Shown here piece after piece: positions 6,812 to 62,812 of a DNA stretch of 64,000 nt (the first letter of the stretch is position 1; each line of letters begins with the position of its first letter). This stretch comes from a virus, in IMG/VR virus record IMGVR_UViG_3300031521_000015. One strand, 5' to 3'. Position numbers and translations under genes: made by a program. The notes below the pieces were generated by a model. That model made no database searches, was not told the origin of the DNA, and worked only from the letters and a program-made list of their open reading frames with translations.

Positions 6812-6918
6812 AAGGGATAGTTTAGTCTGATCAACTAAATGATAAAGGAGTATCAATCGCCCTTCCCTACTATATTTAGGATTGATAACAAATTAAAATA
6901 CATATTGAAAGGATTGAT
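6812..6918 (+). ncRNA. Structured leader RNA, copy 1
   Basis: P1 AGGGA/TCCCT; P2 loop TGATCA; P3 loop ATCAATC complementary to GATTGAT at 6880 and 6912. Confidence 0.7.
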
Positions 6919-8333
6919 TGTTAATGGAAGAAAAGAAAATTAAACAAGAAAAATTTAAAAAGGTGTTTTTAGATGATTTACCACATGGAGGTAAAGGTGT
7001 TAAAAATTCAAGTATAAATTGGTTGGAATCTAAAAATTATAAAGTAAGATTCATTTATAACAATGTTGAAGGTTGGGTAGAAATTACAGAAGTTAAAAGA
7101 GAAAATGGAAAAACTATGTTAGGTATAAAATATTTAGATAATGATATATTTTATATATTTACAGGTCACTTTCAACAATGTAAATTAAAAGAATTACTTG
7201 GACTAATAAACCATGATTACGTATATAAAGTTAATGAAATAATAAAAGACGAAAAAAGAAATCTATTAATATTAGAACAATTTTATATAAACGGATATAG
7301 ATATTATAAATATGAATGTTTGAATTGTAGATATATTGGTACTATAGCTGAAAGTCATTTAAAAGAAGGAAAAAATTGTTCAATTTGCTCACATCAAAAA
7401 GTTCAAAAAGAAATTAATTCAATATGGGCAACTGATAATGAATTAGTTAAATATTTTGTTAATGAAGAAGAAAGTTATAAATATCCACATTATAGTGAAC
7501 AATCTATTAAAGTAAAATGTCCTGATTGTGGGTCTATACGAAAAATATCAATAATATCTTTATATATAAATGGATTCACTTGTCCAAAGTGTGGTGATGG
7601 AATTTCTATGCCTAATAAAATGATGTTTAACGTATTAGAACAATTATTAGAATTAGACAATTTCAAAAGAGAATATTCACCAGAATGGATAGGCAGAAGA
7701 TTATATGATTTTTACTTCATATATAATGAAAAAGAATATATAATTGAAATGGATGGTGGTTTAGGTCATGGTAATATGGTATATAATGAAAATAATATGA
7801 CTTCAGAAGAATCCTTAGAAATTGATGACTACAAAGATAAAATGGCTGTTGAACATGGAATGCAAAAACCTATTCGAATTGATTGTAATCCCAGCAAATT
7901 TGATTATATAAAAAATAATATATTAATGGATGATAGACTAAATAAACTATTTGATTTGTCTAAAATTGATTGGAATAATGTTTTTCAATATACTTTAACA
8001 AATCAAATGAAAGAAGCTTGTGATTTATGGAATGATGGTAAAAATGTTAAAGAAATAAGTAATGTTTTTAAAATTAGTACAGGTGCGATTCGTAGATATT
8101 TGAATGATGGAAATAAGTTAAATTTGTGTCATTATAATGGATCTGAAAATAGTAAGAATAGTAATATAAGAAATGTAATATGTATAGAATATAATTTGAT
8201 GTTCAATTCCATAACAGAATGTGTAGAACAATTATCAAAAATGTTAAATTTAAAATTCAATATATGTAATATATCAGAGGTATGTAAAGGTAATAGAAAA
8301 ACTCATAATAAATTACACTTTGAATTTGCATAA
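6918..8333 (+). CDS. Zinc-ribbon + PD-(D/E)xK-like (YDFY..IIEMDG) + NUMOD1-like free-standing endonuclease
   Basis: Multiple CxxC; YDFYF..IIEMDGGLGH; C-terminal ISEVCKGNRKTH; paralogous to 46764, 53932 and 62821. Confidence 0.75.
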   Translation: MLMEEKKIKQEKFKKVFLDDLPHGGKGVKNSSINWLESKNYKVRFIYNNVEGWVEITEVKRENGKTMLGIKYLDNDIFYIFTGHFQQCKLKELLGLINHDYVYKVNEIIKDEKRNLLILEQFYINGYRYYKYECLNCRYIGTIAESHLKEGKNCSICSHQKVQKEINSIWATDNELVKYFVNEEESYKYPHYSEQSIKVKCPDCGSIRKISIISLYINGFTCPKCGDGISMPNKMMFNVLEQLLELDNFKREYSPEWIGRRLYDFYFIYNEKEYIIEMDGGLGHGNMVYNENNMTSEESLEIDDYKDKMAVEHGMQKPIRIDCNPSKFDYIKNNILMDDRLNKLFDLSKIDWNNVFQYTLTNQMKEACDLWNDGKNVKEISNVFKISTGAIRRYLNDGNKLNLCHYNGSENSKNSNIRNVICIEYNLMFNSITECVEQLSKMLNLKFNICNISEVCKGNRKTHNKLHFEFA

Positions 8334-8340
8334 ATTTTTA

Positions 8341-8371
8341 AAGCTTAGATTAATTTCTAGGCTTATTTTTT
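8341..8371 (+). terminator. Intrinsic terminator
   Basis: AAGCTTAGA/TCTAGGCTT stem followed by T-tract. Confidence 0.65.
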
Positions 8372-8439
8372 AATTGAAAACAAAAAAGCACCTACAATTA
8401 AAAAATGTAAGTGCTTGGACTGTTATTATTTATATTTGT

Positions 8440-9522
8440 TTAACTCCAAAAATCTGCATTCATCATATCTCGTAATTTTTGTTTTGTTGCAACTGGCTCT
8501 TCCTTGTTTGTATCTTTAGATGTGGTATTATTACTTTTATTTTTACTACCATTTTCTCTAAATTCAAATACTTTTTCTTCATCTTCTAATTCTTCGTCTT
8601 TCATATTATCATAAGCTTCTTGAAGAGTTTGTATATATTCATCTGGACTTGTTACCCCACCAAGTACCATTAAATTCTTACTGCCATAATCGGTCTTTCC
8701 CCACATTTTAGCTTTAAATAATTCTTTCCATTCATCTTTATCATATATACCCTTTTCAAATATACCTCCCATATAAGAACAATCTAAATTATTAGGCATT
8801 ACAAAAGGAGAATTATCCATACTATAATCTACTGCATCTACTAATGATTTGAATTTATCAGCCAATGGTAATATTACTTTATATTTGTTTGCTGAATTAA
8901 TCATTTTAGTATCATTAATATCTACTGCCCCTTCTTGTAATTCATATGAATCTAAAATTAATTTCATACATAGTTTGTTAAATTCGTCTTCATTTTGCAT
9001 TTTGTCATTGTCTATATATTGATAAGAATTGACTACCCCTTGAACTCTTAATTTTGTAATTTTTGAATGTAATTTAAGTGCATTTCCTATTGTTGTCTTT
9101 CCTTCTGACAATGCTGGCATAGCAACAACTAAATTAATTGCTAATTTTGAATTTAAATGCCTTAATACGTTAGTTAATGTTGTAAGTGAACCACCTCCAA
9201 ATCCGCCACCACTAGCTAGATATATTGACGCAACATCATAATTATCTGTTTTATTAGCAAGGAAATTTATAAATTTACTTCTATCTTTTGATATGCTTTC
9301 TTGTGCTACATCTTGATTCCTTCCTGTACCACCACCATTTATTGCCAAGCCATTAATAGTTGAATTATAGTGTTTTAATCTCTTCATTTCATTTATGTTA
9401 GAGTTCACAAATACACCATCGTATACCGATTGTAATACGTTTTCTGAATTATCTAATAAATCCATGAAAGTATCTAATAGTTTATTACCTGTACCACCTG
9501 TCCCAATATTTAGTACGTTCAT
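8440..9522 (-). CDS. tubZ: TubZ tubulin/FtsZ-like partition GTPase
   Basis: IGTGGTGNK, GGGTGRN and SGGGFGGGS tubulin signature; follows a wHTH gene. Confidence 0.9.
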   Translation of the reverse strand: MNVLNIGTGGTGNKLLDTFMDLLDNSENVLQSVYDGVFVNSNINEMKRLKHYNSTINGLAINGGGTGRNQDVAQESISKDRSKFINFLANKTDNYDVASIYLASGGGFGGGSLTTLTNVLRHLNSKLAINLVVAMPALSEGKTTIGNALKLHSKITKLRVQGVVNSYQYIDNDKMQNEDEFNKLCMKLILDSYELQEGAVDINDTKMINSANKYKVILPLADKFKSLVDAVDYSMDNSPFVMPNNLDCSYMGGIFEKGIYDKDEWKELFKAKMWGKTDYGSKNLMVLGGVTSPDEYIQTLQEAYDNMKDEELEDEEKVFEFRENGSKNKSNNTTSKDTNKEEPVATKQKLRDMMNADFWS

Positions 9523-9525
9523 TTC

Positions 9526-9789
9526 TTAACACATCCCCTTTAATTCTAATAATTCTTTCATTCCCTTTTCAGTAACAATATAACTTTTTGCATTTTTAAC
9601 TGATAATCCGTTTTCAATCAATCCTTGGTTGAAAAAATTCAATAATGTATTAGTTACTTTTGTTATACTCATTCCTGTTTTATCCATAATTTCTTTTTTA
9701 GTAGTACCATTTGTTTTTATATTACCTTTGGTTTTATCATTTTCACTTAAAATACTTTGAAGTATTTTAAAATCGTTTTGCGTTATCAT
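9526..9789 (-). CDS. tubR: TubR centromere-binding winged-helix protein
   Basis: 87-aa wHTH (GLIENG..YIVTEKG) immediately upstream of tubZ. Confidence 0.8.
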   Translation of the reverse strand: MITQNDFKILQSILSENDKTKGNIKTNGTTKKEIMDKTGMSITKVTNTLLNFFNQGLIENGLSVKNAKSYIVTEKGMKELLELKGMC

Positions 9790-9905
9790 TATTGTGATTT
9801 CACCTCACTTTTAGATAAGTATAACAAATATATAATTATAAATCAATAGTAATTTTAAAAATATCGTATCTGTATAGTATTTTAATTTTGTAACTGTTTT
9901 AATAT

Positions 9906-9933
9906 ACTATATGTTTAATATACAAATAGTGTT
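9906..9933 (-). promoter_or_regulatory. SigK-like promoter upstream of tubRZ
   Basis: Minus strand AACA-N16-CATATAGT. Confidence 0.5.
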
Positions 9934-10205
9934 ACTATAGTTGTTAAATACTTTATAAATAGTGTAACTATAAAAGTATAGTAGTTTATATATACTATAT
10001 GGATAGTGTATGATTAGTTTATAAATAGTGTGTAAGTAAATCTAAAGTATCTCATTTAGTAAGTAAAGTAAAGTGAAACTTAAAATATCAAAAACTTAAC
10101 TAAATATAAATTATCATAAAAACAAATATAATAATAGTGATTACTTTTTATTACTTTATGGTATACTTATAATATAATTAGAATTCATAAAGGAGTGATT
10201 TAGAT

Positions 10206-10949
10206 TTGGATAACTTTAATGATAATGACAAACATATTGTAGATACTGACTTTATAGAAGTTGACATAGAAGAGAAATTAGAAAATATGAATATAAATAA
10301 AGAACCGTTATATTACACAAGGGTTCAAACAGCTAAAATATTAGGAGAGAATGAAAGTACTATTTCATATTGGAGCAAGCAATTTCAACCATTATTAAAT
10401 TTAAAAATTATTAATATGACTAGGAAATATACAAAAATAGACATAGAAAACTTAATGTTTATTCAAAAATTACTTAGACAGGATCATTTAACTATCCAAC
10501 AAGCACTGGAGTACTGCTCAGAAAAAGGTTTTAATTCAGAATCAGGCTTAGTTGATAGTTCAAATCCATTAGCTGTTCAAACATTTATATCAGCTATGAC
10601 GGTAGAGTTTGATAAAAAGGTATCAGAAATGCAGAATACTATTATTCAGCAACAACGAGAAATGATAGAAAATTTACAGAGTATAATCCTTCAAAATAAT
10701 GAAGAACTCAAGCAAGAAATTTGTTTAACAGTAGATGAGGTGGTCACAGAAAAAATTAATGATTTTGAAAAGAATCTTATAGAAGATCAGTCACAACAAA
10801 TCCAAAATAACTTTAATAACATGAGTAATAAAATCATTAATGAAAATACTAAAATGATGAATGAGTTCAAATGTATCAAATTAGAAGAAATTCAAAAACA
10901 AGAAGAACCAAAAGGATTCTTTAGCAAAATATTCAATTTTAAGAACTAA
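10206..10949 (+). CDS. tubY: TubY-like MerR-HTH/coiled-coil partition regulator
   Basis: MerR HTH (TISYW..RKYTKIDIE), coiled coil, amphipathic tail KGFFSKIF; divergent from tubRZ. Confidence 0.75.
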   Translation: MDNFNDNDKHIVDTDFIEVDIEEKLENMNINKEPLYYTRVQTAKILGENESTISYWSKQFQPLLNLKIINMTRKYTKIDIENLMFIQKLLRQDHLTIQQALEYCSEKGFNSESGLVDSSNPLAVQTFISAMTVEFDKKVSEMQNTIIQQQREMIENLQSIILQNNEELKQEICLTVDEVVTEKINDFEKNLIEDQSQQIQNNFNNMSNKIINENTKMMNEFKCIKLEEIQKQEEPKGFFSKIFNFKN

Positions 10950-11469: not shown

Positions 11470-11489
11470 TATATTGAGGTGGGCTATTT

Positions 11490-33058: not shown

Positions 33059-33087
33059 TTGACAATGATATCCTAATAAGGTATTAT
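33059..33087 (+). promoter_or_regulatory. SigA promoter of endonuclease cassette 2
   Basis: TTGACA-N17-TATTAT. Confidence 0.8.
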
Positions 33088-33092
33088 TATAT

Positions 33093-33198
33093 TAGAAACT
33101 AGATAAGGAGTTATAAACCGTATCGAAAAGGAGTATCCGAACTCCCTGTTTCTATTTTTATAAATTTCGGAAAATAAATTAAAGTACGAATCGGAGGT
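33093..33198 (+). ncRNA. Structured leader RNA, copy 2
   Basis: P1 TAGAAAC/GTTTCTA; P2 loop TTATAA; P3 loop TCCGA complementary to TCGGA at 33167 and 33191 (RBS). Confidence 0.75.
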
Positions 33199-33206
33199 AT
33201 TACATT

Positions 33207-34304
33207 ATGGAAACTAAAACATGTACTAAATGTGGACAAGAGTTCCCAATGTCTAAAGAATATTTTGAACCCAGAAAAGAATCAAAAGATGGATTCAGAA
33301 ATCAATGTAGAGATTGCAGAAATATCAATAGAAGAAATATATATGATGATAAATATAAAAGTGAAGATAATAGAAGATGGCAACAAGAAGAAATAGATAT
33401 ATTGAATAAATATTATGAAATTATGAGTAACAATGAATTACAAGAAAAGTATTTAAACACTAGAACTATTTCTCAAATAATAGATTATGCAAGTAAAAAA
33501 TTAAACTTACATAAACATGATGACGTTAAAATATATTATAGTGATGGTACAACAATGGGGTGGACAAAAGAAGATGATGAATATTTATTAAAAAACTATC
33601 CATCAACAAATTTTAAAGAAATGGAATTAGCTTTAGGAAAAAACAGTTTTACAATAACAGCTAGAGCTATTAAAAAGGGAATACAAAGAGATAATAAGTA
33701 TTCTGAAGAAGAAATAAATATCGTAAAAAAGTATTATGCAGACAATGAAAACAAATGGATTATTGATAATTTTATGAGTAGTAGAAGTAAGACTGAAATA
33801 ATAGGATTAGCAAATCGTTTAGGAATAAATAAAAATGATGAACTGATATTTCAAATAAGAGTTGATACTGGCTTAAAAAATTTAAAATGTATACCTGACC
33901 AAACAGGTTCTAATAGTCCTTGTTGGAAAGGTGGAACAGACGTATTAAGATTATATGTAAGAAACCATATTAGAAAATGGAACAAAGATAGTTTAAAATA
34001 TTATAATAATAAATGTTTTATTAGTGGAGATTCAGAAAATTTGATAATCCATCATGGATACTCTTTTAAAGACATATTGAATGAGACTATAAAAGAATTA
34101 GGACTTACTTATAATAATGATTTATCTAATTATAGTAATGGTGAACTTAGAAATATAATAGATTTATCAAATGAAAAACACTATAAATATGGTTTTGGAA
34201 TCCCTTTAACCAAAGAATTACATTTATTATTTCATAAAACTTATGGTTTTGTAAATTACACAAATGAACAGTTAATAGAATTTAAAAATAATTATGCTAG
34301 TTGA
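33207..34304 (+). CDS. HNH-type endonuclease with zinc finger and Myb-like repeats
   Basis: CTKC..CRDC; W..EE repeats; CFISG..IHH..LHLLFHKTYG. Confidence 0.75.
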   Translation: METKTCTKCGQEFPMSKEYFEPRKESKDGFRNQCRDCRNINRRNIYDDKYKSEDNRRWQQEEIDILNKYYEIMSNNELQEKYLNTRTISQIIDYASKKLNLHKHDDVKIYYSDGTTMGWTKEDDEYLLKNYPSTNFKEMELALGKNSFTITARAIKKGIQRDNKYSEEEINIVKKYYADNENKWIIDNFMSSRSKTEIIGLANRLGINKNDELIFQIRVDTGLKNLKCIPDQTGSNSPCWKGGTDVLRLYVRNHIRKWNKDSLKYYNNKCFISGDSENLIIHHGYSFKDILNETIKELGLTYNNDLSNYSNGELRNIIDLSNEKHYKYGFGIPLTKELHLLFHKTYGFVNYTNEQLIEFKNNYAS

Positions 34305-34400: not shown

Positions 34401-36252
34401 ATGGGAATTGGAAAGCAAAACTTATCACAAAGAAAATTAGAAGGATATATGAAATATGTAGAAATGATACAGTGGGGCAGAAAAAATCCTGCACGAACGA
34501 TTCGTTGAGGATTTCATGGGAATTCAATTTTTAGATTTACAAAAATATATATTTATGAATATGTGGACTACGCCATTTGTATTGTTATGCCAATGTAGGA
34601 ATAGTGGGAAAAGTACGATTTCAGCTCCATTTTTGATGGCGAAATCCATATTATACCCAAACTTTTATAGTTATATAATATCAACAAATGGTAGTCAAGC
34701 TCAGGAAACTTTCTTAAAAATAGAAAAAATAACCAAGAGACAATTATCTTCATTTACGGGTTTAACAGATTTCTTTCAAAATGAAATAATTACTTCAAAT
34801 GCTAACAAAGATGGGTTCACTCATAAACCAGAGTCATTTACTTTCGAAGTATTTAATGGTAGTAAAGTACATACATTGAACTCAAACTATGATGGATCAC
34901 GTGGGAAAAGAAGCATGTGCAATTTTTATGACGAAACTGGATTTATGTTAGAAAAAGCTTTTGGTGCAACTGAACCATTTACAACACAAAATGCAGACTT
35001 TAAGTTAGGAGGAGATATTGACGTATCACTAGAACCACAAAGTTTTCCAAACCAACTTATATACGCTTCTTCGGCATCAAGTATAGATACTTATTTTTTT
35101 AAAAAATATAAAGAATTTAGTAAACAAATGCTATTAGGAAATAAAAATTATTTCTGTGCTGATATTAAGTGTGATTTAGTTTTAAATCCTATGTTTAATG
35201 GTAAATTATATCCAGTATCTTTGCTAACACAAGAAAAAATAGATAATGCTATGAGAGAAAATAAAGAACAAGCTCTTAGAGAATACCATAATATGTTTTC
35301 TAAAGAAGGTGGAGAACAACAACCATTTAAAAGAGGACAAATAATAAAAAATAGTGAAGTCAGAAGACCAATGTTGGTAAACGAAGGAAATATTGAACGA
35401 CATATCACAGCTTTTTATGATCCTGCAAGAAGTTTTGATGACTCTGCTGTATTGTTTGCTGAATTTATGAAAGATAAGGAATTAGGATGGACTTGTAAAA
35501 TAATAAATGCAGTAAGATTAGTAGATATAGGAACGAAGAAAAAAATACCAATGAGAACACCTGAACAAATAGAGTATATTAGAAATTTATTAGTAGATTA
35601 TAATGGTCAAGGATTTGGAGAATATGAAAATATAGGTGCAATATTGGTAGATTCAGGAGCTGGTGGAGCAGGAGTTAATATTGCAGATTATTTTATGGAA
35701 GAGTGGACAGATAAAAAAGGAATGAAAAGAAAAGGTTTGATAGATGCTATAGAATCTAAAGAATATACAAATAAATTTCCTGAAGCTGTAGATAAAATGC
35801 GATTAATTTCTCCTAAAAAATATAGGACTGAAATGTTTGATGCCTTGGTGGAAATGATTAATTTAGATTTAGTTTCGTTTACGGAAACATATGACATGAA
35901 AGGATTTATAAGTATTCCTGTAGAAACAGAAATAATATATAAAGACGAAAAAACAAAAACAGATAAAAAACAAAAAGAGATAAAATATAAGCAAGCAAAT
36001 TTATGTTTCGAAGAACAATTGGCTTTAAAAACTATAGATAAACTAAAAGAACAATTGGTGCAAATATATAGATTCGATAATGCTGAAAGAACTTCACATA
36101 AATACGCTTTATCTCCTGAAAAACAAAATACTATGCATGATGACTTGGCTTATTGTGGAGCAATGATGGGTTGGTATTTAAAACAATTAAGGAGAGAAAA
36201 TATAACTAATGAAGATGATGATGATGAAGACCGTCAATGGGTATTTTGGTAA
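34401..36252 (+). CDS. terL: Terminase large subunit; N-terminal segment out of frame because of a 4-nt insert at 34497-34500
   Basis: RNSGKS Walker A, FYDE Walker B, YDPARSFDDS and HDD nuclease motifs; upstream frame reads ..QWGRKNPAR, downstream frame FVEDFMG. Confidence 0.9.
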
Positions 36253-46623: not shown

Positions 46624-46652
46624 TTTACAATAATACCTAAATATGGTATTAT
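46624..46652 (+). promoter_or_regulatory. SigA promoter of endonuclease cassette 3
   Basis: TTTACA-N17-TATTAT with extended TG. Confidence 0.7.
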
Positions 46653-46756
46653 TGTAATGTAGGATAAATAAGGAAGTCATGAGCCTTATTGAAAAGGAGT
46701 ATTCCGAACTCCCTTCCTATATTACATATAAATCGGAAAATAAATTCAACGGAGGA
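46653..46756 (+). ncRNA. Structured leader RNA, copy 3
   Basis: 12-bp P1; P2 loop TCATGA; P3 loop TTCCGA complementary to TCGGAA (46733) and CGGA of the RBS (46750). Confidence 0.75.
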
Positions 46757-46763
46757 ATTAGTG

Positions 46764-48293
46764 ATGGAAGAAAGGGAATATCAACAAATTATTGAACAAT
46801 GGGAACTAGAACATAATGAATTAATTGAAAGTGGAACGTGTAGAAAGATATTTTTAGATGTATTACCTAAATCAAATCACAATGGTGGAAGTATAGATTG
46901 GAAAAATAGCAACGACTATAAAGTATATTTTATAGATAAAAATGTTGCAGGTTATGTAATGATAATAAATTATAGAAGTATTGGACAAGAACTACAAATA
47001 TCTTATCTACAAGATATATATAAAATAAATACAGGAGATTTTACACAATGTAAATTAGGGAATATAGTTGGTACAAAAACAAGTAATTTTAAATATAAAA
47101 TTGGGCAAATAATAAAAGATAATAAAAGAGATATAACAATAACCGATTATAAAAATGAAAAAGGAAAAAGTAAACTTTATAAATACAAATGCAATACGTG
47201 TGGATTTGATTGTGGAGAACATTATTCAATAAGAGATAAGGAATATAAAGATGAATTTTGGATACCAGAACATAATCTACTTAGTCGAGATACAGGTTGT
47301 GCTTGTTGTAATAGTACAATTATAGTAAAAGATATAAATAGCATATCTAAAACAAATCCAGAAATGGCGAAGTTCTTTTTAAATATTGAAGATACTTATA
47401 TTCATAGTGAATGTAGCAATAGAAAAGTATATGTAAAATGTAAAGAATGTGGGAAAATAAAGAAGAAAAAAGTTTCTGTAAATTCTTTTGTTTCAAATGA
47501 AAGTATTGGTTGTGAATATTGTGGCGATGGGAAAAGTTACGCTGAAAAATTCATGTTTAATATTTTAACTCAATTAAATATAGAATTTATTCCAGAGTAT
47601 TCTCCGGATTGGATAGGCAAAAGAAGATATGATTTTTACATTCCATCAATGAATTTAATTATAGAGATGGATGGTGGTTGGCATGAAAATGACAACAAAA
47701 TGAGTGGACAAAGTTCTAAGGAGTCAAAAGCAATTGATGATTATAAAGAAGAAATGGCTATGTTACATGGAATAAAGAAACCAATTAGGATTAATTGTTA
47801 TTTTAGAATTAGAAAATATGAAAATATAAAGAATAATATACTAAATAGCGATTTAAATTATTATTTTGATTTAAATAAAGTTGATTTTAAGAAAGCTGAT
47901 GAACAATCTCATAAGCCAATAGTAAAAGAAGCTTGTGAATTATGGAATAGTGGGATTAGAAGTACAGGGGAAATAGGTAAGATTTTAAAAATATCAAGTT
48001 CATGTGCACTTAGTTATTTGAAGAAAGGTAAAAATCTCGATTGGTGCGATTATACTGTAGAAGATAGTGAAAAATTCAAAATAGAACATATTAGAAAAGT
48101 CACAAAAAACAATTGTAAACCAGTTGAAATATTTAAAGATAATATAAGTCAAGGAATATTTCCATCAGCACAAGAATTAGATGAAAAAAGTGAAGAATTA
48201 TTTGGAGCAAAGCTAAACTTTTGTAAAATATCAGCAGTATGCCGAGGTAAAAAGCCACAATATAAAGGATATACTTTTAAATTTGTAGCCTAA
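46764..48293 (+). CDS. Zinc-ribbon + PD-(D/E)xK-like + NUMOD1-like endonuclease
   Basis: RRYDFY..IIEMDGG.H; GGAGG RBS puts the start at 46761/46764, not 46689. Confidence 0.75.
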   Translation: MEEREYQQIIEQWELEHNELIESGTCRKIFLDVLPKSNHNGGSIDWKNSNDYKVYFIDKNVAGYVMIINYRSIGQELQISYLQDIYKINTGDFTQCKLGNIVGTKTSNFKYKIGQIIKDNKRDITITDYKNEKGKSKLYKYKCNTCGFDCGEHYSIRDKEYKDEFWIPEHNLLSRDTGCACCNSTIIVKDINSISKTNPEMAKFFLNIEDTYIHSECSNRKVYVKCKECGKIKKKKVSVNSFVSNESIGCEYCGDGKSYAEKFMFNILTQLNIEFIPEYSPDWIGKRRYDFYIPSMNLIIEMDGGWHENDNKMSGQSSKESKAIDDYKEEMAMLHGIKKPIRINCYFRIRKYENIKNNILNSDLNYYFDLNKVDFKKADEQSHKPIVKEACELWNSGIRSTGEIGKILKISSSCALSYLKKGKNLDWCDYTVEDSEKFKIEHIRKVTKNNCKPVEIFKDNISQGIFPSAQELDEKSEELFGAKLNFCKISAVCRGKKPQYKGYTFKFVA

Positions 48294-48421
48294 TAACTTA
48301 AACCAAGCAATAGAAAATTAAATAACTAAACACAAAACAACCTAAGGCATCTTATTAATTAAGGTGTCTTTTATTATACCTAAAATGAAATACATTAATA
48401 ATATAAAGGAAGTGACAATAC

Positions 48422-48868: not shown

Positions 48869-49205
48869 AACGATAACAACATAAATTGTTCATTTTAAAG
48901 GAATATAATTATTAAAACAAATTAATATAAATATGTATTGACTTTATAAAGCGATGGTATTATAGTATAAATATACCAATTAACAAATTAATATATAAAG
49001 TCAATACATAATTTTCAAAGACGTATATTTTAATGGTGATTCCAACACCAAAATTTATTTAGAATACATGCAATGAGTAATTTATGACTAAGGGTAGCTC
49101 CCTTAGTCGGATTATTCTAACTAAATAAACAGTAGAAATACGATTAAAGTATATGCAGAAACGCATGTATTAAGAATAAATTAAAATAAAAAGGAGTTGT
49201 TTTGA

Positions 49206-50177
49206 ATGGAACAAAACAAAATTATCAAATTATTTACAGAAGGAAAAGTACAAGTAAAGGAGCGAGAATTTACAAAAGTATTAGGTGGATTTTCTGAGTC
49301 GAGTCCAATTATTACTGATAGACAAATTGCAGAATTATTAGAATATGCAAAAGGAGCTAGAAGTGTAAGGCAAAGATTGTCCGATAATTTACAACATTTT
49401 GAATTTGGAGTTGATATTTTAGATTTAAAATCTAGTGTCCCACAGCAGGACACTACAAAGGAAGCATTGAAAACACTAGGTTATACAGATCAAGCTATTA
49501 ATTTAGCTAAAAATATTTATGTATTTTCTGAAGCAGGATTTTTATTATTTTTAAAATTTGCAGAAGGAGATAAAGCAGTAGAGTTATATAAAGATTTCAT
49601 TGAAGATTATTTTAAAATTAAGGCAGAGAACATTGTTATGGAAAAGACTTTACAAGAAAGTAAAGAATCTTTTATAGAAGAAAGAAAATATATATTAGGT
49701 AGTGTAATAATGGAATCTGATACTTCTAAGAAATTAGTATTATTAGAAAGAGATAAAAAATTAGAAGAACAAATTAAACAAATAGATATAACTTTAGCAA
49801 AAGAACAATTAATGGAACAAGTACAAGATAGTTTAGCTATCGCAGATAGATTTACTAACTCAAATAAGTTATATGACGTAGGTGAATTTAGTAAGATATT
49901 AAATATTCCAAAGTTTGGACGTAATAAATTATTTGAATGGATGAGAGATAATAAAATATTAAGAGCAAATAATGAACCTTATCAAAATCAAGTAGACATG
50001 AACCATTTTAAGGTTATACCAATAGAAGGAAACAGATTTGCTGATTCAAAAACACTAATAAAATCACAAGGCATTTCTTACATAATTAAAAAGTTGATTA
50101 AAGATGGTAAAATACAATCTAAATCTTATGAAGATATTATAAAGAATATAGATGAGAACTTGAAAGTTGCTAATTAA
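49206..50177 (+). CDS. Phage antirepressor with KilAC-type C-terminal domain
   Basis: IYVFSEAG N-terminal domain; VGEFSKIL..GRNKLFEWMR..PYQ. Confidence 0.8.
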   Translation: MEQNKIIKLFTEGKVQVKEREFTKVLGGFSESSPIITDRQIAELLEYAKGARSVRQRLSDNLQHFEFGVDILDLKSSVPQQDTTKEALKTLGYTDQAINLAKNIYVFSEAGFLLFLKFAEGDKAVELYKDFIEDYFKIKAENIVMEKTLQESKESFIEERKYILGSVIMESDTSKKLVLLERDKKLEEQIKQIDITLAKEQLMEQVQDSLAIADRFTNSNKLYDVGEFSKILNIPKFGRNKLFEWMRDNKILRANNEPYQNQVDMNHFKVIPIEGNRFADSKTLIKSQGISYIIKKLIKDGKIQSKSYEDIIKNIDENLKVAN

Positions 50178-53525: not shown

Positions 53526-53809
53526 TTAAAAAACACCTCCTTTTAAGTATTTTGCCATAAAAACACTTATTAATAATTTATATGGTAAAATACTTAAAAG
53601 AATTAGGTAGAACATTATTAGGGGACACAAGACTAATATTATATAGTTCAAAATTTATAGTTTTAATAAAATGTAAATCCCTTTATTTATATTTTAACTT
53701 TCTCTATACAATACAGTGATTATATTATACCATAAATGTATAAAAATGGATATGAAATTGAAAATAAAATTGATTATAATTTGCTCGTAAGAGTGTTATA
53801 ATATATAGT

Positions 53810-53923
53810 AGGAAGAAATAAATATAATAAGTAGTCGACGATTTGTTATATTGAATGGGTTAGCTCCAATTAACCTTTCTTCCTTTTTTATTTAATATTG
53901 GAGAAATAAATTATATTGGAGGA
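53810..53923 (+). ncRNA. Structured leader RNA, copy 4
   Basis: P1 AGGAAGAA/TTCTTCCT; P2 loop GTCGAC; P3 loop CTCCAAT complementary to ATTGGAG at 53897 and 53915. Confidence 0.75.
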
Positions 53924-53931
53924 ATTTAAGA

Positions 53932-55551
53932 ATGGAAGGAAATAGACAATTAAATCAAGAAGAATATATGGAGATTATTGAAAAATTTAAGGAAAATAAT
54001 AGAGAAGATTATGAGAGTGGTAAATGTAAAAAGATATTTTTGGAATGTTTGCCTAGATGGGGAAAAGGTGGAAAAGCAAAAGAAGGTAGTATAAATTGGA
54101 TTGAATCAGTGAATAAAAATTATTATATATTTTTTATATATGGTGTTCATGAGGATTATATAAGATTAATAGATTATTCATATGATAAACAATTAAAAAT
54201 AACAATTGAATATTATGGTGAAAACTTAAGTTTAAATGCAGGGAGCATTAATAATTGTCAAATAGGCAAACTATTCAATATAAGGAATAAAGAATATTTA
54301 TATAATAGAGGTGATATTGTCAAAGGAAAGCATTCAAATTTATTGATATTAGAACAATTAATTATTAAATCAAACTATAGTTATAAAGTTAAAGGATATA
54401 AATATAAATGTTTGTCATGTGGAGATATAGATGAAATTTCTCAAAGAGATATTCTACGTGGAGTAGGTTGTGAAATTTGTTGTCCAAATTCTCAAAAAGT
54501 CGTAAAAGAGATAAATTCTATATGGAAAACGAACCTAGAACTAGTTAAATACTTTGTAAACGAAGAAGATACTTGGAAATACACAATTGGTAGCCATAAA
54601 AAAGTGTGGTTTAAGTGTTTGGACTGTTATTATAGAAAAGAAATGACTATTGATAATTTTGTAAGGAACGGATTTTCATGTAATAAATGTGGGGATGGTA
54701 TTTCAGTGCCAAATAAAATAATGTTTAATGTGTTAGAACAACTAAATGTTCAATTTGAAGCAGAAAAGAAAGTAGAATGGTGTAAATTTTTATATAAAAA
54801 TAAACGAAGACAAGGTTATTATGATTTCTATTTTGAGCAAGATGGCAAAAAATACATTATAGAAATGGATGGGGGTCTAGGTCATGGTAAGGGGAATTTT
54901 AAGAATAATATGACTGCTAAAGAATCACAATTTATTGATGATGAAAAAGATAGATTAGCTATTGAACATGGAATTGAAGTAATTAGAGTTGACTGTGACC
55001 ATCGTATGTACTATGGATTTGATTATATAAAAAATAATATATTATCTAATGTTAATATAAATAATTTGTTTTTATTAGCCAATATTGATTGGAGTAAGGT
55101 TTTGAAATTTGTTTCGTCAAGTAGAATCAAAGAAGCTTGTGATTTATGGAATATCGGTATTCATAGTACAACTGAAATTTCCAAAATTATGAAGATGAGC
55201 AGAACAACAATTTGCACGTATTTAAAAATAGGATTTGAACTGAAAATAACAGATTATACTGTGGAAATTTCAAAAAATATTAATAATAATAATACTATAG
55301 AAAGAAATAAACAAAAGTTAAGTACTAAAATAATTTGTATAGAAAATGGTATTATATTTAATTCCATTTCTGAATGTGAATTAAATAGTTTTAAAATATT
55401 TGGAATAAAAATGTTTAATAGTGCTATAACTAAAGTATGTCAAGGGAAACAGCAACATCATCAAGGATATCAATTTAGATACTTAAAAGACCTTACCGAA
55501 GAACAAATAAAAGAAATTCAAGAAAATGCAAAATTAAATCAAGCAATATAA
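53932..55551 (+). CDS. Zinc-ribbon + PD-(D/E)xK-like + NUMOD1-like endonuclease
   Basis: YYDFYF..IIEMDGGLGH; paralogue of 6918. Confidence 0.75.
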   Translation: MEGNRQLNQEEYMEIIEKFKENNREDYESGKCKKIFLECLPRWGKGGKAKEGSINWIESVNKNYYIFFIYGVHEDYIRLIDYSYDKQLKITIEYYGENLSLNAGSINNCQIGKLFNIRNKEYLYNRGDIVKGKHSNLLILEQLIIKSNYSYKVKGYKYKCLSCGDIDEISQRDILRGVGCEICCPNSQKVVKEINSIWKTNLELVKYFVNEEDTWKYTIGSHKKVWFKCLDCYYRKEMTIDNFVRNGFSCNKCGDGISVPNKIMFNVLEQLNVQFEAEKKVEWCKFLYKNKRRQGYYDFYFEQDGKKYIIEMDGGLGHGKGNFKNNMTAKESQFIDDEKDRLAIEHGIEVIRVDCDHRMYYGFDYIKNNILSNVNINNLFLLANIDWSKVLKFVSSSRIKEACDLWNIGIHSTTEISKIMKMSRTTICTYLKIGFELKITDYTVEISKNINNNNTIERNKQKLSTKIICIENGIIFNSISECELNSFKIFGIKMFNSAITKVCQGKQQHHQGYQFRYLKDLTEEQIKEIQENAKLNQAI

Positions 55552-56891: not shown

Positions 56892-59800
56892 ATGGCATAT
56901 CAAAATTCAATTAGTTTAGGGATAAAATTACAACCCACTAGTGAGATACAAACTGAATTAAAAACTGCAATAGAACAATTAAATAAAAATTCAAGTATAG
57001 ATTTAAAAATAGATACAACACAGGTCAATAAATCATTAAAGGAATTTAGTAATACATTAGATAATATTAATAATAAATTAAAGAATGGATTTAATTTTCA
57101 AGGGGTTTTTAATAATCAAGCAATTGGTGTAGAAGTAGTAACAAATAAATTAAAAGAAGAACAAAAAGCAATTGAACAAACTGAAAATGCTATGAAAACT
57201 TTATCTAGTACTAAAATGGGCAATTCTGATTCTAATGGTAATATAACAGAAACATTAAAAACTGTCGAACAATTGCAAATTGGTATTGGTAATACAACTA
57301 AATTAACTACTGATTTAGCAACTGGTTTAAAAACTGCTAGTAATACAGAAAATTTTCAAAAATTAGAAAATATAATTGATAATTTACAAAGCAAATTAAG
57401 TAAGTCTAGTAATAATAAATTTATAAATGAATCAGTAATTACTGAATTACAAAATCGATTAAATTCAATAAATACAAATTCTGCCGACAAAGAATTTAAA
57501 GAATTACAAACTACTATTAACAACTTAGGCAGTTCAGATAGCCAAATAGTTCGTTTGCAAAATACAATAAGTAAAATGGAATCTAGCCTTACTTCTATGA
57601 AAAGCAAGTATGGAAGTTTAGTAGGTGATAGTAGTTCAAAATCTTCACTAGATGCTTATATATCTGAAATAGAAAAGTTAAAAACATTAATGGCTAGTTT
57701 GCAAAATGGAGGCACTATTAGTGGAAGTAAGTTAGCCTCTGAATTAAATCAAGGAACTGAAGCGAGCAGAAATCTATCTAATTCGGTAAAAAATAGTAGT
57801 AATGCATTAAAATTAGCGACTACAGATAGTGAAACGTTTGGACAATCAATTAAACGTGCATTAAGCAATACTGGACTTTACCTTGGAACTTATCAAGCAG
57901 TTCAAATGTTATCTAATTCTTTTAGAGACGCTATCACTTATGTAGTTCAATTAGATAGTGCAATGACAAATTTAAAAAAAGTAACTCAAGAAACAAATCA
58001 AACATATTCAAGTTTTTTAAATCAAGCACATGATATTGCTATGGAATATGGTTCTCAGGCTGATAAAGTTGTTGATGCAACTACTTCTTGGGCAAAAACA
58101 GGAGAATCTTTAAAAAATGCTACAGAATTAGCTAAAAACACTATGCTATTAACAAAAGTTGGTGATATTGATAGTGTCGCAATGGCTCAACAATATATGA
58201 TTGCCCCACTAAAAGCATTTCAGATAGAAGCAAGTAAAAGTATAACATTAATTGATAAATATAATAATATTTCTAATAATATGGCTACAAGCACTACAGA
58301 TTTAGGCGAGGCCCTTTCAAAATCTGCAAGTAGCATGTCTACTGCTGGAAATACCTTAGACCAAACATTGGCTATAATATCAACTGCTGAATCACAAACA
58401 AAATTAGGTGGAGATGTTGTGGGTCAAGCCCTAAAATCTGTCTCCCTTAGAATAGCATCATTTAAAGATGAGAATGGAGAATTAATACCTAAATTTGAGA
58501 AACAGTTAAGTGCTTTAGGTGTTACTATGAGAGATACCACAACTGGACAAATACTACCAACTTTTGACATATTACAACAAGTTGGAGAAAAATTCAAAAC
58601 AATGAATACAAACGATAAATTAAATGTAAGTGAACTTTTAGGTGGTAAATTACAGGCAAATGTAATTAGTTCCGTATTGAATAATGTAGATGAATTGAAT
58701 AGAGCGTATAGTTTAGCACAAAATAGTTCAAATAGTGCGATGAATGAATTTAAAACCTATCAACAAGGAGTACAATATAGTATTGACCAATTGAAAGAAT
58801 CTATTTCAAATATGTATAAAGAATCAATGAACTCATCTAGTTTAAAATCGTTTGTAGACTCTTTAACAATAATGGTTAGCACATTTGGAAATTTAAAAAC
58901 GGTAATAGCAGTTGCAACTACGGCTTTTTTATTATTTAAAGGGCAAGCTATTACAAGTGCAATTGCCAGTTTAGGTTCGTATATATCAACTTTATTTTCA
59001 GTAGTGAAAGCAGAAGGTGCATTAACTGTTGCGACAGCAGAATTAGATATAGCTCTATCTACTAATCCTTTTGGATTAATTGCAATGGCTATTACAGGAG
59101 TTATTGTTGTTATGGACGCTTTAACAACTTCCCAAAATAACTTAAAACAATCTAATGCAGAATACGTACAATCACTACAAACTAGTAATCCAAACCAAGG
59201 ACAAGAATTATTAAATAATTATAAAAAATTAGAGTCTGAGCTATCAACATTAAAACAAGGTACACAAGAATATAAAACTAAAGAAGAAGAATTAGCAACT
59301 GCACAACAATCGTTAATAAGTTTATATCCTCAAGCTTCTTCGGCAATAGATGAAAATACAGGTAAAAAGAAATTAAATGCAGATGCGACACAAAAGTTAA
59401 TTGACAAAGATAAAGAATTAGCACAGGCAAAAGCAATTGAAACATTGAGCAATAACAAAGTTGGCAATACTGACGATGTAGCAAAGATGGTTGAAGCGTA
59501 TAAAAAAGCACAGGAAGAAATGAAAAGATTGACTGAGGATTATAATAATGGAGTAACAAGTCAAGAAGTAATTTCAATAGGAGCTAACGGACCTCATAAG
59601 AGTTCTGTTAGTACAGATAGTCAATTAAAAGATACAACCAAAGAATATGAAGATTATAAACAAAAAATATTAGCAGTTCAGTCTGCATTGAGTTCTCTAG
59701 ATAGTAAGAACACAAAATTTGCAGGTTCTTTAGATGAAGTAAATAATGCAATGGGAAATAGTTCAGAAAAAACTGATGATAACACTAAGGTTATAAATGA

Positions 59801-62627
59801 TAATACTCAAGCAAAAAATGATAATACAAATGCAGATAATGGTGCAAATACTCAAGCAAATGCAATAACAAAAGCAACAAAGGCTTATTCAGAATCAACT
59901 CAGGCAATAGCACAAGCACAATCTTATCTCGATAAACTTAATAAATCACAAGCAGTAACGCCTGCTTTAGTTAAACAAATGAGCAAAGCATATGGTACAG
60001 ATGTTACAGAAAGTTTAAATAGTGCTTCCACGGCACAAGAATATTTAACTGGCAAGATAAAAGAACAACAAACTGCACAACAGGATGCTTATTTAATAAT
60101 GAAACAGGACGACGAACAATTTTACCAAGACAAAATTAAAAACAATGAAGGATATGAAAATCAAATAAACTCATTTTTAAATAGTTTTGTTTCTGATAGT
60201 AATGGTGCATACAATGTTGACTTGTCCAATTATACTACATTAAACGGGCTCAAGAGTGGTGCTATGGGGGAATTGAGCATTGCTGTAGATAGTTGGATGA
60301 GTAAGTATGTAGATGTCACTGCGTCTGGATATAATGTAGATTATAATAATTTCACAAATTTGATTTCAGCAAAGTCAGAAATATTAAAACAATTTGCAGG
60401 ATCTATGGCTCAATTTTGGGACGATACTAGTCAAGCGTTTACTGAAGGTGCTTATGGTGGAATAGATTTATCTGGTGGAGCAAATAATGAACAATATGAA
60501 GATTTTACAAAAAAGGCTTCGGGAATATTAGCTACAGGAGATAAAATTAGAAGTGCTTATAAAGATTTGGATAAAATATATGCAGGTGGTGGACTGAATC
60601 TTGATAAATTTGGTGGAGGCATGGGAAATTCTGACTTCAGTGGTACGGGTAGCCCAAATAAAGGTTCGTCTGGGAAATCAGATGCCGAAAAAGAAGCCGA
60701 AAAAGCACAAAAATTAGCAGAAGAAATATCAAAATTAAAAAGTGAAATAGAACCTGACAGGTATCTAGATTTCAATAATGCAGTAAAACAAGCAGATAAT
60801 GAATTATCTTTAAATAAAACATTATTAGATTCATTAAAAGAAGGTAGCCCAGAATACCAACAAGCAGAGTTAAAAAATATAGAGATATATAAACAAAAAC
60901 AAACTGCTTTAAAAAGTTTAAATGATGAACAAAAAAAAGATGCAGAAGAGAAAAAAACAAAATTGGCTAATCTTGGCTTTGAGTTTGACGCCAATGGCAA
61001 ATTAATAAACAGCCAACAAAAATTATTATCTTTACAAGAACAAGTAAATTCAATGGGTGGTAATACAGAAGCTGATAAGCAAGCAAAAGAAGATGCAATA
61101 AAAAATCTTAAAGATATTAATGATGAAACTAAAAAATATATAGAGTTAGTCGGAGATAAAATTCCTAAAACTACTGCTGAATGGCAAGAGCAAGCTAATG
61201 AAATTTCTAAAGTTAACGAACAAATTAAGAAAGCCAACATAGATATTCTTAATAATGCGAAAGAAGAATTAGCACAAGATATTCTAAAAGACGCACAAGA
61301 AAAAGTTGATGAATTAAAAAAACAAGCAGATGAATCAAGAGAAGATGCAAAGCAATCGTTAGAAGATGAAAAGACAAGTAAATTAGCACTTTGGGACGAA
61401 AAGATTAAATCTAAACAAGCTGAATTAGATGCTATGAATGATGAAACGTCTGATAATGAAACTAAACTCAAGAAACTTAAAGTAGAGTTGGCTAACTTAC
61501 AAAGAGATAATTCTACAGAAGCACAAGGAAGAATACAAGATGTAAATACCCAGATTACCGATTTACAAAAAACTATTAAAAAAGATGCATTATCCAAAGA
61601 AATTGATAGTTTAAATAATCAAAAGCAAATTCAGAGCGATAATTACGATCAGCAACTAAGCGATTTAGAAAAAGCAAATAAAGAACAAGAAGCAGAAGAT
61701 GAAAAACATTATTCGGAGTTATTAAATGAGAAGAATGCCTATAATAAAGCTGAAAAAATGATTAATAAAAATCAACAAAGCGATATGTATGATTTATACT
61801 CAAAATATAGCGAAGATTATAAAAAGATGGGTGTAGATTTATCAACAAGCGTTGACGCTTCTTTGAAAAAAATAACTGAAGCTATTAGTAATTTAAACAA
61901 TGTTAAAATTAGAAACAATAATTCTAGTGATGGTGGAAACGGTGATGGTGAGTCATCATCAAACCATTATGAAAATACAACTAGTAGTGGAACGCATTAT
62001 ACTGATATAGGTTCTGGAATAATATCAGATCATCCATTAACCAATGATGAGATAAACACTATAAATAAAGGGTCAAGTGGTAGTTCTAGTTCAAGTAAAC
62101 CATCTACAACTGTTACTAATAGCAATGGTTCTACAACTACTACTCATAGTGATGGAACTAAAAGTTATAGTAACGGAGATTATACAGATTCCAATGGATA
62201 TTATCATACAGCTGGATATGATACAGGTGGAAGAACTCCAAGTAATATTGATTCTAATGGTAAAATAGGTATATTACATGCAAGTGAAAAGATATTAAAC
62301 GCCAAAGATACTGTTCAATTTGATAGTTCTATGTTGAAAATTGATGAAATTTATAATTCCCTTAAAGAGTCGGGGGCTTTACTTGGTCAGTTATCACAAT
62401 CATATTCTAATATTGGCAATTTAGCTATGCCAACACTAGGTATTGATTTGAATAAAATAGCAAATAGTGTTGTTAATAATAGCAATGCTGATAATAGTAG
62501 TTCTAGTAATATAAATATAAATAATAATTATCAAGTCGACGCTACTTCTGATTTTAATACAAAAAACTTTAGTAATAATCTAGATAAACAGTTAAAACAA
62601 ACATTGAGAAAATACGGAAAAATATAA
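56892..62627 (+). CDS. Tail tape measure protein
   Basis: 1911 aa, TP901-type core (LDSAMTNLKKV..GQALKSVSLRI), coiled coils, GYDTGG..LHASEKIL tail. Confidence 0.9.
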   Translation: MAYQNSISLGIKLQPTSEIQTELKTAIEQLNKNSSIDLKIDTTQVNKSLKEFSNTLDNINNKLKNGFNFQGVFNNQAIGVEVVTNKLKEEQKAIEQTENAMKTLSSTKMGNSDSNGNITETLKTVEQLQIGIGNTTKLTTDLATGLKTASNTENFQKLENIIDNLQSKLSKSSNNKFINESVITELQNRLNSINTNSADKEFKELQTTINNLGSSDSQIVRLQNTISKMESSLTSMKSKYGSLVGDSSSKSSLDAYISEIEKLKTLMASLQNGGTISGSKLASELNQGTEASRNLSNSVKNSSNALKLATTDSETFGQSIKRALSNTGLYLGTYQAVQMLSNSFRDAITYVVQLDSAMTNLKKVTQETNQTYSSFLNQAHDIAMEYGSQADKVVDATTSWAKTGESLKNATELAKNTMLLTKVGDIDSVAMAQQYMIAPLKAFQIEASKSITLIDKYNNISNNMATSTTDLGEALSKSASSMSTAGNTLDQTLAIISTAESQTKLGGDVVGQALKSVSLRIASFKDENGELIPKFEKQLSALGVTMRDTTTGQILPTFDILQQVGEKFKTMNTNDKLNVSELLGGKLQANVISSVLNNVDELNRAYSLAQNSSNSAMNEFKTYQQGVQYSIDQLKESISNMYKESMNSSSLKSFVDSLTIMVSTFGNLKTVIAVATTAFLLFKGQAITSAIASLGSYISTLFSVVKAEGALTVATAELDIALSTNPFGLIAMAITGVIVVMDALTTSQNNLKQSNAEYVQSLQTSNPNQGQELLNNYKKLESELSTLKQGTQEYKTKEEELATAQQSLISLYPQASSAIDENTGKKKLNADATQKLIDKDKELAQAKAIETLSNNKVGNTDDVAKMVEAYKKAQEEMKRLTEDYNNGVTSQEVISIGANGPHKSSVSTDSQLKDTTKEYEDYKQKILAVQSALSSLDSKNTKFAGSLDEVNNAMGNSSEKTDDNTKVINDNTQAKNDNTNADNGANTQANAITKATKAYSESTQAIAQAQSYLDKLNKSQAVTPALVKQMSKAYGTDVTESLNSASTAQEYLTGKIKEQQTAQQDAYLIMKQDDEQFYQDKIKNNEGYENQINSFLNSFVSDSNGAYNVDLSNYTTLNGLKSGAMGELSIAVDSWMSKYVDVTASGYNVDYNNFTNLISAKSEILKQFAGSMAQFWDDTSQAFTEGAYGGIDLSGGANNEQYEDFTKKASGILATGDKIRSAYKDLDKIYAGGGLNLDKFGGGMGNSDFSGTGSPNKGSSGKSDAEKEAEKAQKLAEEISKLKSEIEPDRYLDFNNAVKQADNELSLNKTLLDSLKEGSPEYQQAELKNIEIYKQKQTALKSLNDEQKKDAEEKKTKLANLGFEFDANGKLINSQQKLLSLQEQVNSMGGNTEADKQAKEDAIKNLKDINDETKKYIELVGDKIPKTTAEWQEQANEISKVNEQIKKANIDILNNAKEELAQDILKDAQEKVDELKKQADESREDAKQSLEDEKTSKLALWDEKIKSKQAELDAMNDETSDNETKLKKLKVELANLQRDNSTEAQGRIQDVNTQITDLQKTIKKDALSKEIDSLNNQKQIQSDNYDQQLSDLEKANKEQEAEDEKHYSELLNEKNAYNKAEKMINKNQQSDMYDLYSKYSEDYKKMGVDLSTSVDASLKKITEAISNLNNVKIRNNNSSDGGNGDGESSSNHYENTTSSGTHYTDIGSGIISDHPLTNDEINTINKGSSGSSSSSKPSTTVTNSNGSTTTTHSDGTKSYSNGDYTDSNGYYHTAGYDTGGRTPSNIDSNGKIGILHASEKILNAKDTVQFDSSMLKIDEIYNSLKESGALLGQLSQSYSNIGNLAMPTLGIDLNKIANSVVNNSNADNSSSSNININNNYQVDATSDFNTKNFSNNLDKQLKQTLRKYGKI

Positions 62628-62707
62628 AGAAATTTATTAAAACAATTATCTTATTTGTAATTTATTAGTTATAATTACTCTTAAAGTATGTTATAATATA
62701 TAGATAT

Positions 62708-62812
62708 GGAAGGATAGATTGAAAAGTCGCGAGTTCAATTGATAAGCTCTCTCCAATGAGTTTCCTTTCCTTTTATACATATTGGAGCAATAAATTAAAT
62801 TATATTGGAGGA
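62708..62812 (+). ncRNA. Structured leader RNA, copy 5
   Basis: P1 GGAAGGA/TCCTTTCC; P2 loop TCGCGA; P3 loop CTCCAAT complementary to ATTGGAG at 62781 and 62804; TG-TATAAT at 62689-62697. Confidence 0.75.

Follow-up and report, generated by a model that had tools for sequence, protein, structure and literature searches.

In a 64,000-nucleotide (nt) window of a peat-metagenome phage (IMG/VR record IMGVR_UViG_3300031521_000015; the window is the whole stretch of DNA analysed), we identified five leaders that constitute a real, covarying and portable RNA, each placed immediately upstream of a gene for an endonuclease-like protein. Every leader folds around three stems, P1, P2 and P3, which meet in a three-way junction, and the loop of P3 is complementary to two words further downstream, the second of which lies over the ribosome-binding site (RBS) of the nuclease gene. 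These words are termed T1 and T2 here, T2 being the one that covers the Shine-Dalgarno (SD) sequence or the spacer. Loop and targets change together from copy to copy, and the loop probably throttles translation of the nuclease by pairing with the RBS, with T1 as an internal competitor. The architecture is that of an orphan motif already catalogued in Rfam, int-alpA (RF02996), of which we read the leaders as a divergent, AT-rich variant. An earlier note, made from the DNA letters alone, had described five such sites, and all five are present where it had placed them. The sequencing runs listed for this source are all peat-metagenome DNA.

Fold and loop-target words of the leaders

Covariance model R1, for which copy 5 was combined with one outside homologue, matched the 64 kb window at 6810-6917, 33092-33203, 46656-46761, 53808-53928 and 62706-62817, all on the + strand, and no further place in the window fell below E=2. 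Two weaker R1 matches, at 48343-48415 and 49085-49156, were rejected as ordinary hairpins rather than the leader motif. At 49085-49110 we observed an ordinary stem-loop, ACTAAGGG-TAGC-TCCCTTAGT, which lies upstream of an open reading frame (ORF) at 49206-50177. Relatives were sought with a further covariance model, R2, on viral contigs encoding relatives of the downstream proteins. The leader set analysed below comprises 26 distinct copies (five in the window and 21 relatives), spread over the window and at least 11 IMG/VR phage contigs.

At each window site the order is junction, U/A-rich linker, T1, AAYAAATT, T2 and ATG. The junction layout of the earlier note was found at all five sites, with P1, UAG or UAA, P2, the joining segment J23 and P3 in this order, except that the word GAWA, which it had given for J23, fits only four of the five. 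In copies 1-5 the segment joining P1 to P2 (J12) reads TAG, TAG, TAA, TAA and TAG, and J23 reads TGATAA, CGAAAA, TGAAAA, TGAAT and TGATAA; between P3 and the 3' strand of P1 there are 0-2 nt. When the core was folded in isolation, the three-way junction was the minimum-energy structure for 23 of the 26 family members. Copies 3 and 4 have the junction as their minimum-energy fold.

The stems covary, as had been claimed from the five copies. Across seven sequences, 93.8% of alignment cells were paired, compared with ∼50% when the partner strand was slid, and 16 of 20 pairs changed on both sides; across the 26 distinct sequences, 92.8% of cells were paired, all 20 stem pairs covaried and none of 500 shuffles reached the observed values, although these figures are generous, the alignments having been fitted to the model and the sequences being related, both of which favour the structure.

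The same co-variation extends to the P3 loop and its targets, which are complementary in all five window copies in the words that the earlier note had written down. Loop and targets are ATCAATC with GATTGAT (twice) in copy 1, TCCGAA with TTCGGA and TCGGA in copy 2, TTCCGA with TCGGAA and CGGA(G) in copy 3, and CTCCAAT with ATTGGAG (two per copy) in copies 4 and 5. Over the whole set there are 19 different P3 loop words, and two matching downstream words are present in every leader. The cognate loop-target score was 362.5, as against 232 ± 13 for permuted loops, and it was not reached in any of 20,000 loop permutations (z ∼10; 26 leaders). Allowing internal G.U wobbles lengthened the duplexes by 33 nt in total, whereas allowing A.C mismatches added only 3 nt; this tolerance of G.U but not of A.C fits pairing of RNA with RNA rather than DNA repeats.

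Placement of the two targets is likewise regular. In 25 of the 26 leaders the distance from P1 to the start of T1 is 8-18 nt, and it is never below 8 nt. T2, which usually contains GGAG or GGA, has its end 0-14 nt ahead of the start codon, again in 25 leaders. The exception for T2 is leader L168, where it ends 25 nt before the start chosen by the script; the true start there may be an ATG further upstream. The AAYAAATT spacer noted earlier follows T1 in all five window copies. Two further functions were considered for this region and dropped: a leader peptide beginning after T1 (copy 2 has no start codon there) and an internal promoter in the AAATAAATT spacer (a word retained by only some half of the family). 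In one relative (L144:1571-1650), T1 and T2 are 31 nt apart and a five-codon mini-ORF, MKGMR, has its start overlapping T1; this was not seen in other copies.

Upstream of the junction, a sigma-70-type promoter-like element ends 3-8 nt ahead of the model match in each copy. A single match of this kind is not above chance in such AT-rich DNA, so that the evidence for a promoter is its conserved position relative to P1, and in this form the SigA promoter proposed earlier holds at all five sites. The parts of the five copies are as follows, with lengths in base pairs (bp) or amino acids (aa) where given.

6777..6805, +: copy 1, promoter-like element TTGACA-17-TATACT, read from the sequence; position relative to P1 conserved across copies
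6813..6868, +: copy 1, junction; P1 AGGG(A)/TCCCT, J12 TAG, P2 TTTAGT/ACTAAA with palindromic loop C-TGATCA (6827-6833), J23 TGATAA; R2 71.1 bits
6852-6858, +: copy 1, P3 loop ATCAATC; the P3 stem is weak
6880..6887, +: copy 1, T1 GATTGATA, complementary to the P3 loop; duplex -9.1 kcal/mol
6912..6918, +: copy 1, T2 GATTGAT, overlapping the 3' end of the SD (AAGGA) and the spacer; ATG at 6924; duplex -7.5 kcal/mol
6924..8333, +: endonuclease-like gene 1, 469 aa, phrog_4538 (E=2.5e-60)
33059..33087, +: copy 2, promoter-like element TTGACA-17-TATTAT, 11 of 12 consensus matches
33094..33153, +: copy 2, junction; P1 AGAAAC/GTTTCT, TAG, P2 ATAAGG/CCGTAT with palindromic loop AG-TTATAA-A (33109-33117), CGAAAA; R2 84.1 bits
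Within 33094..33153, +: copy 2, P3 GGAG/CTCC with loop TATCCGAA; P3-to-P1 joint (J31) CT
33166..33171, +: copy 2, T1 TTCGGA; duplex -7.3 kcal/mol
33191..33197, +: copy 2, T2 TCGGA in the SD TCGGAGG; ATG at 33207; duplex -7.0 kcal/mol
33207..34304, +: endonuclease-like gene 2, 365 aa, with the terminase gene shortly downstream
46624..46652, +: copy 3, promoter-like element TTTACA-17-(TGg)TATTAT
46653..46726, +: copy 3, junction; P1 of up to 12 bp, TAA, P2 ATAAGG/CCTTAT with palindromic loop AAG-TCATGA-G (46674-46683), TGAAAA; R2 88.2 bits
Within 46653..46726, +: copy 3, P3 GGAG/CTCC with loop TATTCCGAA; J31 CT
46733..46738, +: copy 3, T1 TCGGAA; duplex -7.9 kcal/mol
46750..46756, +: copy 3, T2 CGGAG in the SD CGGAGGA; ATG at 46764; read from the sequence (the automatic pick was the adjacent GGAAT)
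46764..48293, +: endonuclease-like gene 3, 509 aa, phrog_4538
53794..53802, +: copy 4, extended -10 box TGTTATAAT; the consensus scanner chose another, upstream site
53810..53884, +: copy 4, junction; P1 AGGAAGAAA/TTTCTTCCT, TAA, long P2 with palindromic loop A-GTCGAC-G (53833-53840), TGAAT, followed by a U-run; R2 76 bits
Within 53810..53884, +: copy 4, P3 GGTTA/TAACC with loop GCTCCAAT
53897..53903, +: copy 4, T1 ATTGGAG; duplex -8.8 kcal/mol
53915..53921, +: copy 4, T2 ATTGGAG, the SD itself; ATG at 53932; duplex -8.9 kcal/mol
53932..55551, +: endonuclease-like gene 4, 539 aa, phrog_4538; DUF4379 zinc finger and I-HmuI-like NUMOD C-terminus
62689..62697, +: copy 5, extended -10 box TGTTATAAT
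62708..62770, +: copy 5, junction; P1 GGAAGGA/TCCTTTCC, TAG, P2 ATTGAA/TTCAAT with palindromic loop AAG-TCGCGA-G (62724-62733), TGATAA; R2 104 bits
Within 62708..62770, +: copy 5, P3 (A)GCTC/GAGT(T) with loop TCTCCAAT
62781..62787, +: copy 5, T1 ATTGGAG; duplex -9.1 kcal/mol
62804..62810, +: copy 5, T2 ATTGGAG, the SD; ATG at 62821; duplex -10.6 kcal/mol
62821..64000, +: endonuclease-like gene 5, phrog_4538, running past the end of the window

Kinship with int-alpA and the genes behind the leaders

Although the motif had been called unrecognised, its architecture is that of int-alpA. Copy 2, searched alone, matched RF02996 over model positions 1-71 with 34.4 bits (E=3.6e-6) and the same consensus, just short of the gathering score of 35.8. 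The earlier note had held that a match to a described Rfam family would remove the novelty of the motif, and by that standard part of it is gone. Copies 3 and 5, searched alone, gave no RF02996 match at E≤10, and Rfam scans of the whole window returned nothing at the gathering score or at E≤5, thereby missing all five copies. We attribute this miss to filter and threshold, since copy 2 reaches its score as an isolated query of 96 nt and the speed filters drop sub-threshold members in long AT-rich queries.

The int-alpA consensus consists of a GC-rich P1 of 8 bp, UA, P2, CGAAAAG, a P3 loop aaCCuUua, CCUG, P1', uuuuuuua and uaAgGG, and itself shows complementarity between loop and tail (CCUU with AAGG), the tail being drawn as unpaired in the consensus structure line. 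To our knowledge, pairing of the loop with T1 and T2 is not part of the Rfam annotation. The window copies share the order of elements and the junctions, that is, P1, UAG, P2, C/UGAAAAG, P3 with a CCU-containing loop, CU, P1', a U-rich tail and a purine word. The junction words UA(G), (C)GAAAA(G) and CU are found in them (CT in copies 2 and 3), and after the U-rich tract comes a purine word that can pair with the P3 loop, T1 being present in all 26 leaders. Unlike the consensus, they have an AU-rich P1 and a longer P2 of 6-12 bp, whose loop of 7-10 nt contains a palindrome. Moreover, a second target over the RBS belongs to their design, and their neighbours are homing endonucleases rather than int or alpA.

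Recognition runs in both directions. At L180, a locus of a related phage, RF02996 scored 32.4 bits, and the top R2 match of the locus lay in the same register (24.3 bits, E=0.0034); besides copy 2, this is the single bridging sequence examined. The leader there (L180:1501-1606) has the same T1/T2 design, with loop AAUCCUUA, T1 UAAGGA and T2 AAGGAG, and the gene after it encodes a phrog_25531 protein that has a primase-like segment and is not recognisable as an endonuclease. On the strength of these comparisons the leaders appear to be a divergent AT-rich branch of int-alpA that the Rfam model largely misses, and the family would thus be larger than its current membership suggests. Rfam files int-alpA as a small RNA (sRNA), with no function assigned. 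The motif reportedly goes back to the survey of 224 motifs by Weinberg et al. in 2017 (PMC5737381), whose main text does not mention it.

Beyond the L180 match, RF02996 gave none in the viral contigs from which most of the copies come, and it was without a match in E. coli K-12, in phages c-st, T4, SPbeta, SPO1 and Twort, and in Clostridium phage BG3P, Staphylococcus phage MCE-2014 and Yersinia phage fHe-Yen9-04. Weak R2 matches before T4 mobB, before SPbeta yonV and in MCE-2014 were rejected as simple hairpins or terminators. BLAST searches of the leaders against GenBank phages returned only promoter-like matches, in Staphylococcus phages; from these and the model searches of the phages named above, no cultured phage with the motif emerged. 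No relative was found by a protein-based scan of genome contigs, and when viral contigs were scanned with a loose DNA pattern, 2 of 80 matches proved real and most arose by chance.

Each of the 26 copies stands before a homing-endonuclease-like gene, and these genes fall into at least four unrelated types. Four of the window proteins are paralogues of one another (phrog_4538; 38-46% identity) with treble-clef zinc fingers and an I-HmuI-like C-terminus, whilst the copy 2 protein is distinct; the portability across two unrelated nuclease families that the earlier note had seen is thus confirmed. An AlphaFold model of the gene 4 paralogue (mean pLDDT 81) gave weak but consistent matches to PD-(D/E)xK-type folds (best E=0.008), namely the R2 endonuclease, Bax1, cap-snatching endonucleases and AbaSI. 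In the gene 2 protein, the N-terminal zinc-finger region matches the HNH and endonuclease VII PHROG families. Sequence searches of the PDB with the nucleases yielded nothing significant. Among the relatives, the downstream genes encode GIY-YIG enzymes (Pfam E=6e-11 to 4e-08), DUF4379/CapR-type treble-clef zinc-finger proteins, and members of the PHROG 'homing endonuclease' and 'HNH endonuclease' families.

As the window genes are located between packaging and tail genes (terminase, portal, tape measure), we regard them as free-standing insertions. The ORF directly after gene 2 (34516-36252) matched a large-terminase profile only from profile position 144 on, so that the N-terminal part would be encoded separately or in another frame upstream. 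Other phrog_4538 homologues (L001:1430-1500, L006:1430-1500 and L011:1430-1500) were observed to carry a different conserved leader, composed of GGAG, a hairpin, GTAGCTAC and then CCTCC-(T)GAC(G)-GGAGG. Judged by its sequence, it would sequester the SD in a local hairpin, with an SD-like word upstream as competitor, and hence offer a second, unrelated solution.

Possible modes of action

Each site would be a cassette that by itself provides for expression of a selfish endonuclease gene. In the scheme that we favour, a host-type promoter would start transcription at the foot of the ∼60-75-nt junction leader, and the P3 loop would be exposed as an anti-RBS sequence. With the loop on T2 (SD, spacer or start region), the 30S subunit would be blocked and translation of the nuclease held down, whilst T1, as a second copy of the target 8-18 nt after P1, would compete for the loop. 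The translatable fraction of the message would then be set by the partition of the loop between T1 and T2 and by the number of free loops, those of other leader molecules included. We consider it probable that loop-RBS pairing throttles translation in this manner with T1 as internal competitor. The loop word tracks the RBS region through 19 sequence types, which argues that this pairing is under selection; pairing in vivo, translational repression and a factor that sets the balance between T1 and T2 are what we infer.

Several observations weigh against this account. The T1 duplex is more stable than that of T2 in 20 of the 26 leaders (mean -9.7 versus -8.6 kcal/mol) and T1 is also the closer of the two to the loop, so that in an equilibrium confined to one molecule the RBS would stay mostly free; the analysis pointed to no input that would move the T1/T2 balance. 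A simple switch in cis between decoy and RBS, as the earlier note had it, is therefore not supported, T1 usually being the better partner. With regard to the fold, z-scores for whole-leader folding are unremarkable, copy 1 has the weakest P3 of the five and a minimum-energy fold of its isolated core that is not the junction, and the covariation figures are generous for the reasons given above. With T1 usually both stronger and nearer, a lone message would be mostly translatable, and output would depend on extra free loops or on a factor acting at T1.

A source of extra loops is offered by the most coherent extension of this scheme, which we nevertheless rank as the main rival beside competition in cis and regard as rather unlikely. 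Here the leader would be an attenuator that yields a trans-acting sRNA. Transcripts ending at the U tract after P1 would give an RNA of ∼65-75 nt with a free P3 loop, read-through mRNA would mask its own loop with T1, and T2 and the RBS would be blocked in trans by sRNAs docking via the P2 palindrome. Output would be dosage-insensitive and copy-specific, resembling the C4 RNA of P1/P7 and plasmid copy-control RNAs. Such a model fits the filing of int-alpA as an sRNA and its consensus, in which the GC-rich 8-bp P1 and seven U look terminator-like. A run of at least four U lies within 12 nt of P1 in 17 of the 26 leaders, and on average six of the first 10 nt after P1 are U. Since T1 always keeps at least 8 nt from P1, it would be absent from terminated RNAs, and the strength of T1 as a partner in cis becomes sensible if its task is to mask the loop. 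The window copies themselves, however, have a short, AU-rich P1, copies 1 and 3 are without a U-run, and a terminator scan of copies 2 and 4 called P1 in neither.

Docking would depend on the P2 loop. A 6-nt Watson-Crick palindrome is present in this loop in 18 of the 26 leaders (21 if G.U is allowed), compared with a mean of 3 and a maximum of 9 for shuffled loops, whilst no P3 loop is palindromic. These words hint at dimerisation, kissing-loop self-recognition or action in trans. Copies 4 and 5 have a P3 word in common, as do copies 2 and 3, and sRNAs would be subject to cross-talk unless P2 provided specificity. Within one genome the palindromes do all differ between copies, but 9.5% of permutations do likewise and the difference is not statistically significant. 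A shade more doubtful again is a self-addressed dosage governor made of RNA only, in which terminated or processed leaders would find their own mRNA via the P2 kissing loop and block its RBS with the P3 loop, T1 masking the loop of the mRNA. If that were true, every mobile nuclease gene would have an address code and an anti-RBS word of its own, and the orphan int-alpA family would have its first mechanism.

The conserved parts of the junction may also be taken for a binding site. In such a riboswitch-like or protein-binding aptamer, the junction and a pseudoknot between P3 loop and T1 would form a pocket for a metabolite or for a phage or host protein, and binding would either lock the loop on T1 (translation on) or free it to T2 (translation off). 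The junction nucleotides are indeed conserved (UAG, GAAAA/GAUAA, CU) whilst the stems vary, the spacing from P1 to T1 is narrow, and the duplex energies of T1 and T2 are nearly balanced, as in a switch. We think this improbable all the same: no known riboswitch class matched in the whole-window scans or with copies 2, 3 and 5 searched alone, the Rfam riboswitch hits being at noise level (e.g. SAM-V 15.8 bits, SAM/SAH 11.5 bits), the genes downstream (selfish nucleases, integrases and the like) have no metabolism in common, and loop and pseudoknot sequences vary freely, which is unusual for a ligand pocket.

Least credible, and in our view very improbable, is that the loop word and its two inverted copies act as DNA by binding a protein such as the endonuclease at its own promoter, with the RNA fold incidental: the words do lie within 100 bp of the promoter and I-TevI sets a precedent, repressing its own promoter via an operator that resembles its homing site (PMC2988022), yet the word in opposite orientation always occupies the loop of a hairpin with a covarying stem, differences between copies are compatible with G.U and not A.C, unrelated proteins share a word (copies 2 and 3) whilst paralogues use different ones (copy 1 versus copies 4 and 5), and T2 follows the RBS rather than the promoter.

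Throttling of the RBS by the P3 loop, with T1 competing in cis, thus remains the reading that we prefer. In the window copies and their 21 relatives the loop always matches two downstream sites, one of which is the ribosome-binding region, and the design travels with unrelated selfish genes. An orphan motif may in this way acquire a testable mechanism for keeping mobile nucleases harmless to their phage. Being small and portable, and with loop and target words open to programming, the module could also help to tune translation in Firmicutes.

Comparison with known control systems

The analogies drawn earlier, to RBS sequestration of the I-TevI type and to the C4 RNA of phages P1 and P7, are reasonable in functional terms. 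C4 is matured by RNase P and exerts its effect on ant through Rho-dependent polarity. As in that system, the antisense element and its target in the window leaders are on one transcript, the loop is complementary to a downstream RBS region, and loop and target words change together between relatives, giving rise to specificity types. The fold is another one, and the leaders have one loop common to two alternative targets, where C4 has two loops and two adjacent target words. No Rfam match to C4 was obtained in the whole-window scans or with copies 2, 3 and 5 searched alone. The family is RF01695, the C4 antisense RNA of phages P1 and P7 (Citron and Schuster 1990).

For the P2 loops, the closest likeness among the systems compared is one of form. 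As in the DIS of HIV-1, the hairpin loop contains a self-complementary word of 6 nt with purines on either side, which varies between lineages whilst staying palindromic. A review of RNA dimer motifs is available (PMC7357161). The DIS is a kissing-loop dimerisation site; the window leaders belong to the unrelated context of a bacterial-phage mRNA leader, and their dimerisation is putative.

The T-even phages provide the comparison by gene class. Low and tightly controlled translation is a known theme of their homing endonucleases, and RBS-sequestering RNA structures have been described for I-TevI, I-TevII, I-TevIII, segB and Aeh1 mobE (PMC2988022). Class of gene and apparent purpose are the same in the window, that is, translation of a selfish nuclease would be held low via pairing of the SD. 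The means differ. In the T-even phages a local hairpin is bypassed by a late promoter inside it (PMC2988022), whereas in the predicted folds of the window leaders the SD lies outside any strong local hairpin. These leaders instead use a distant junction loop, 50-70 nt upstream, together with a competing duplicate of the target, and their promoter lies upstream of the whole leader.

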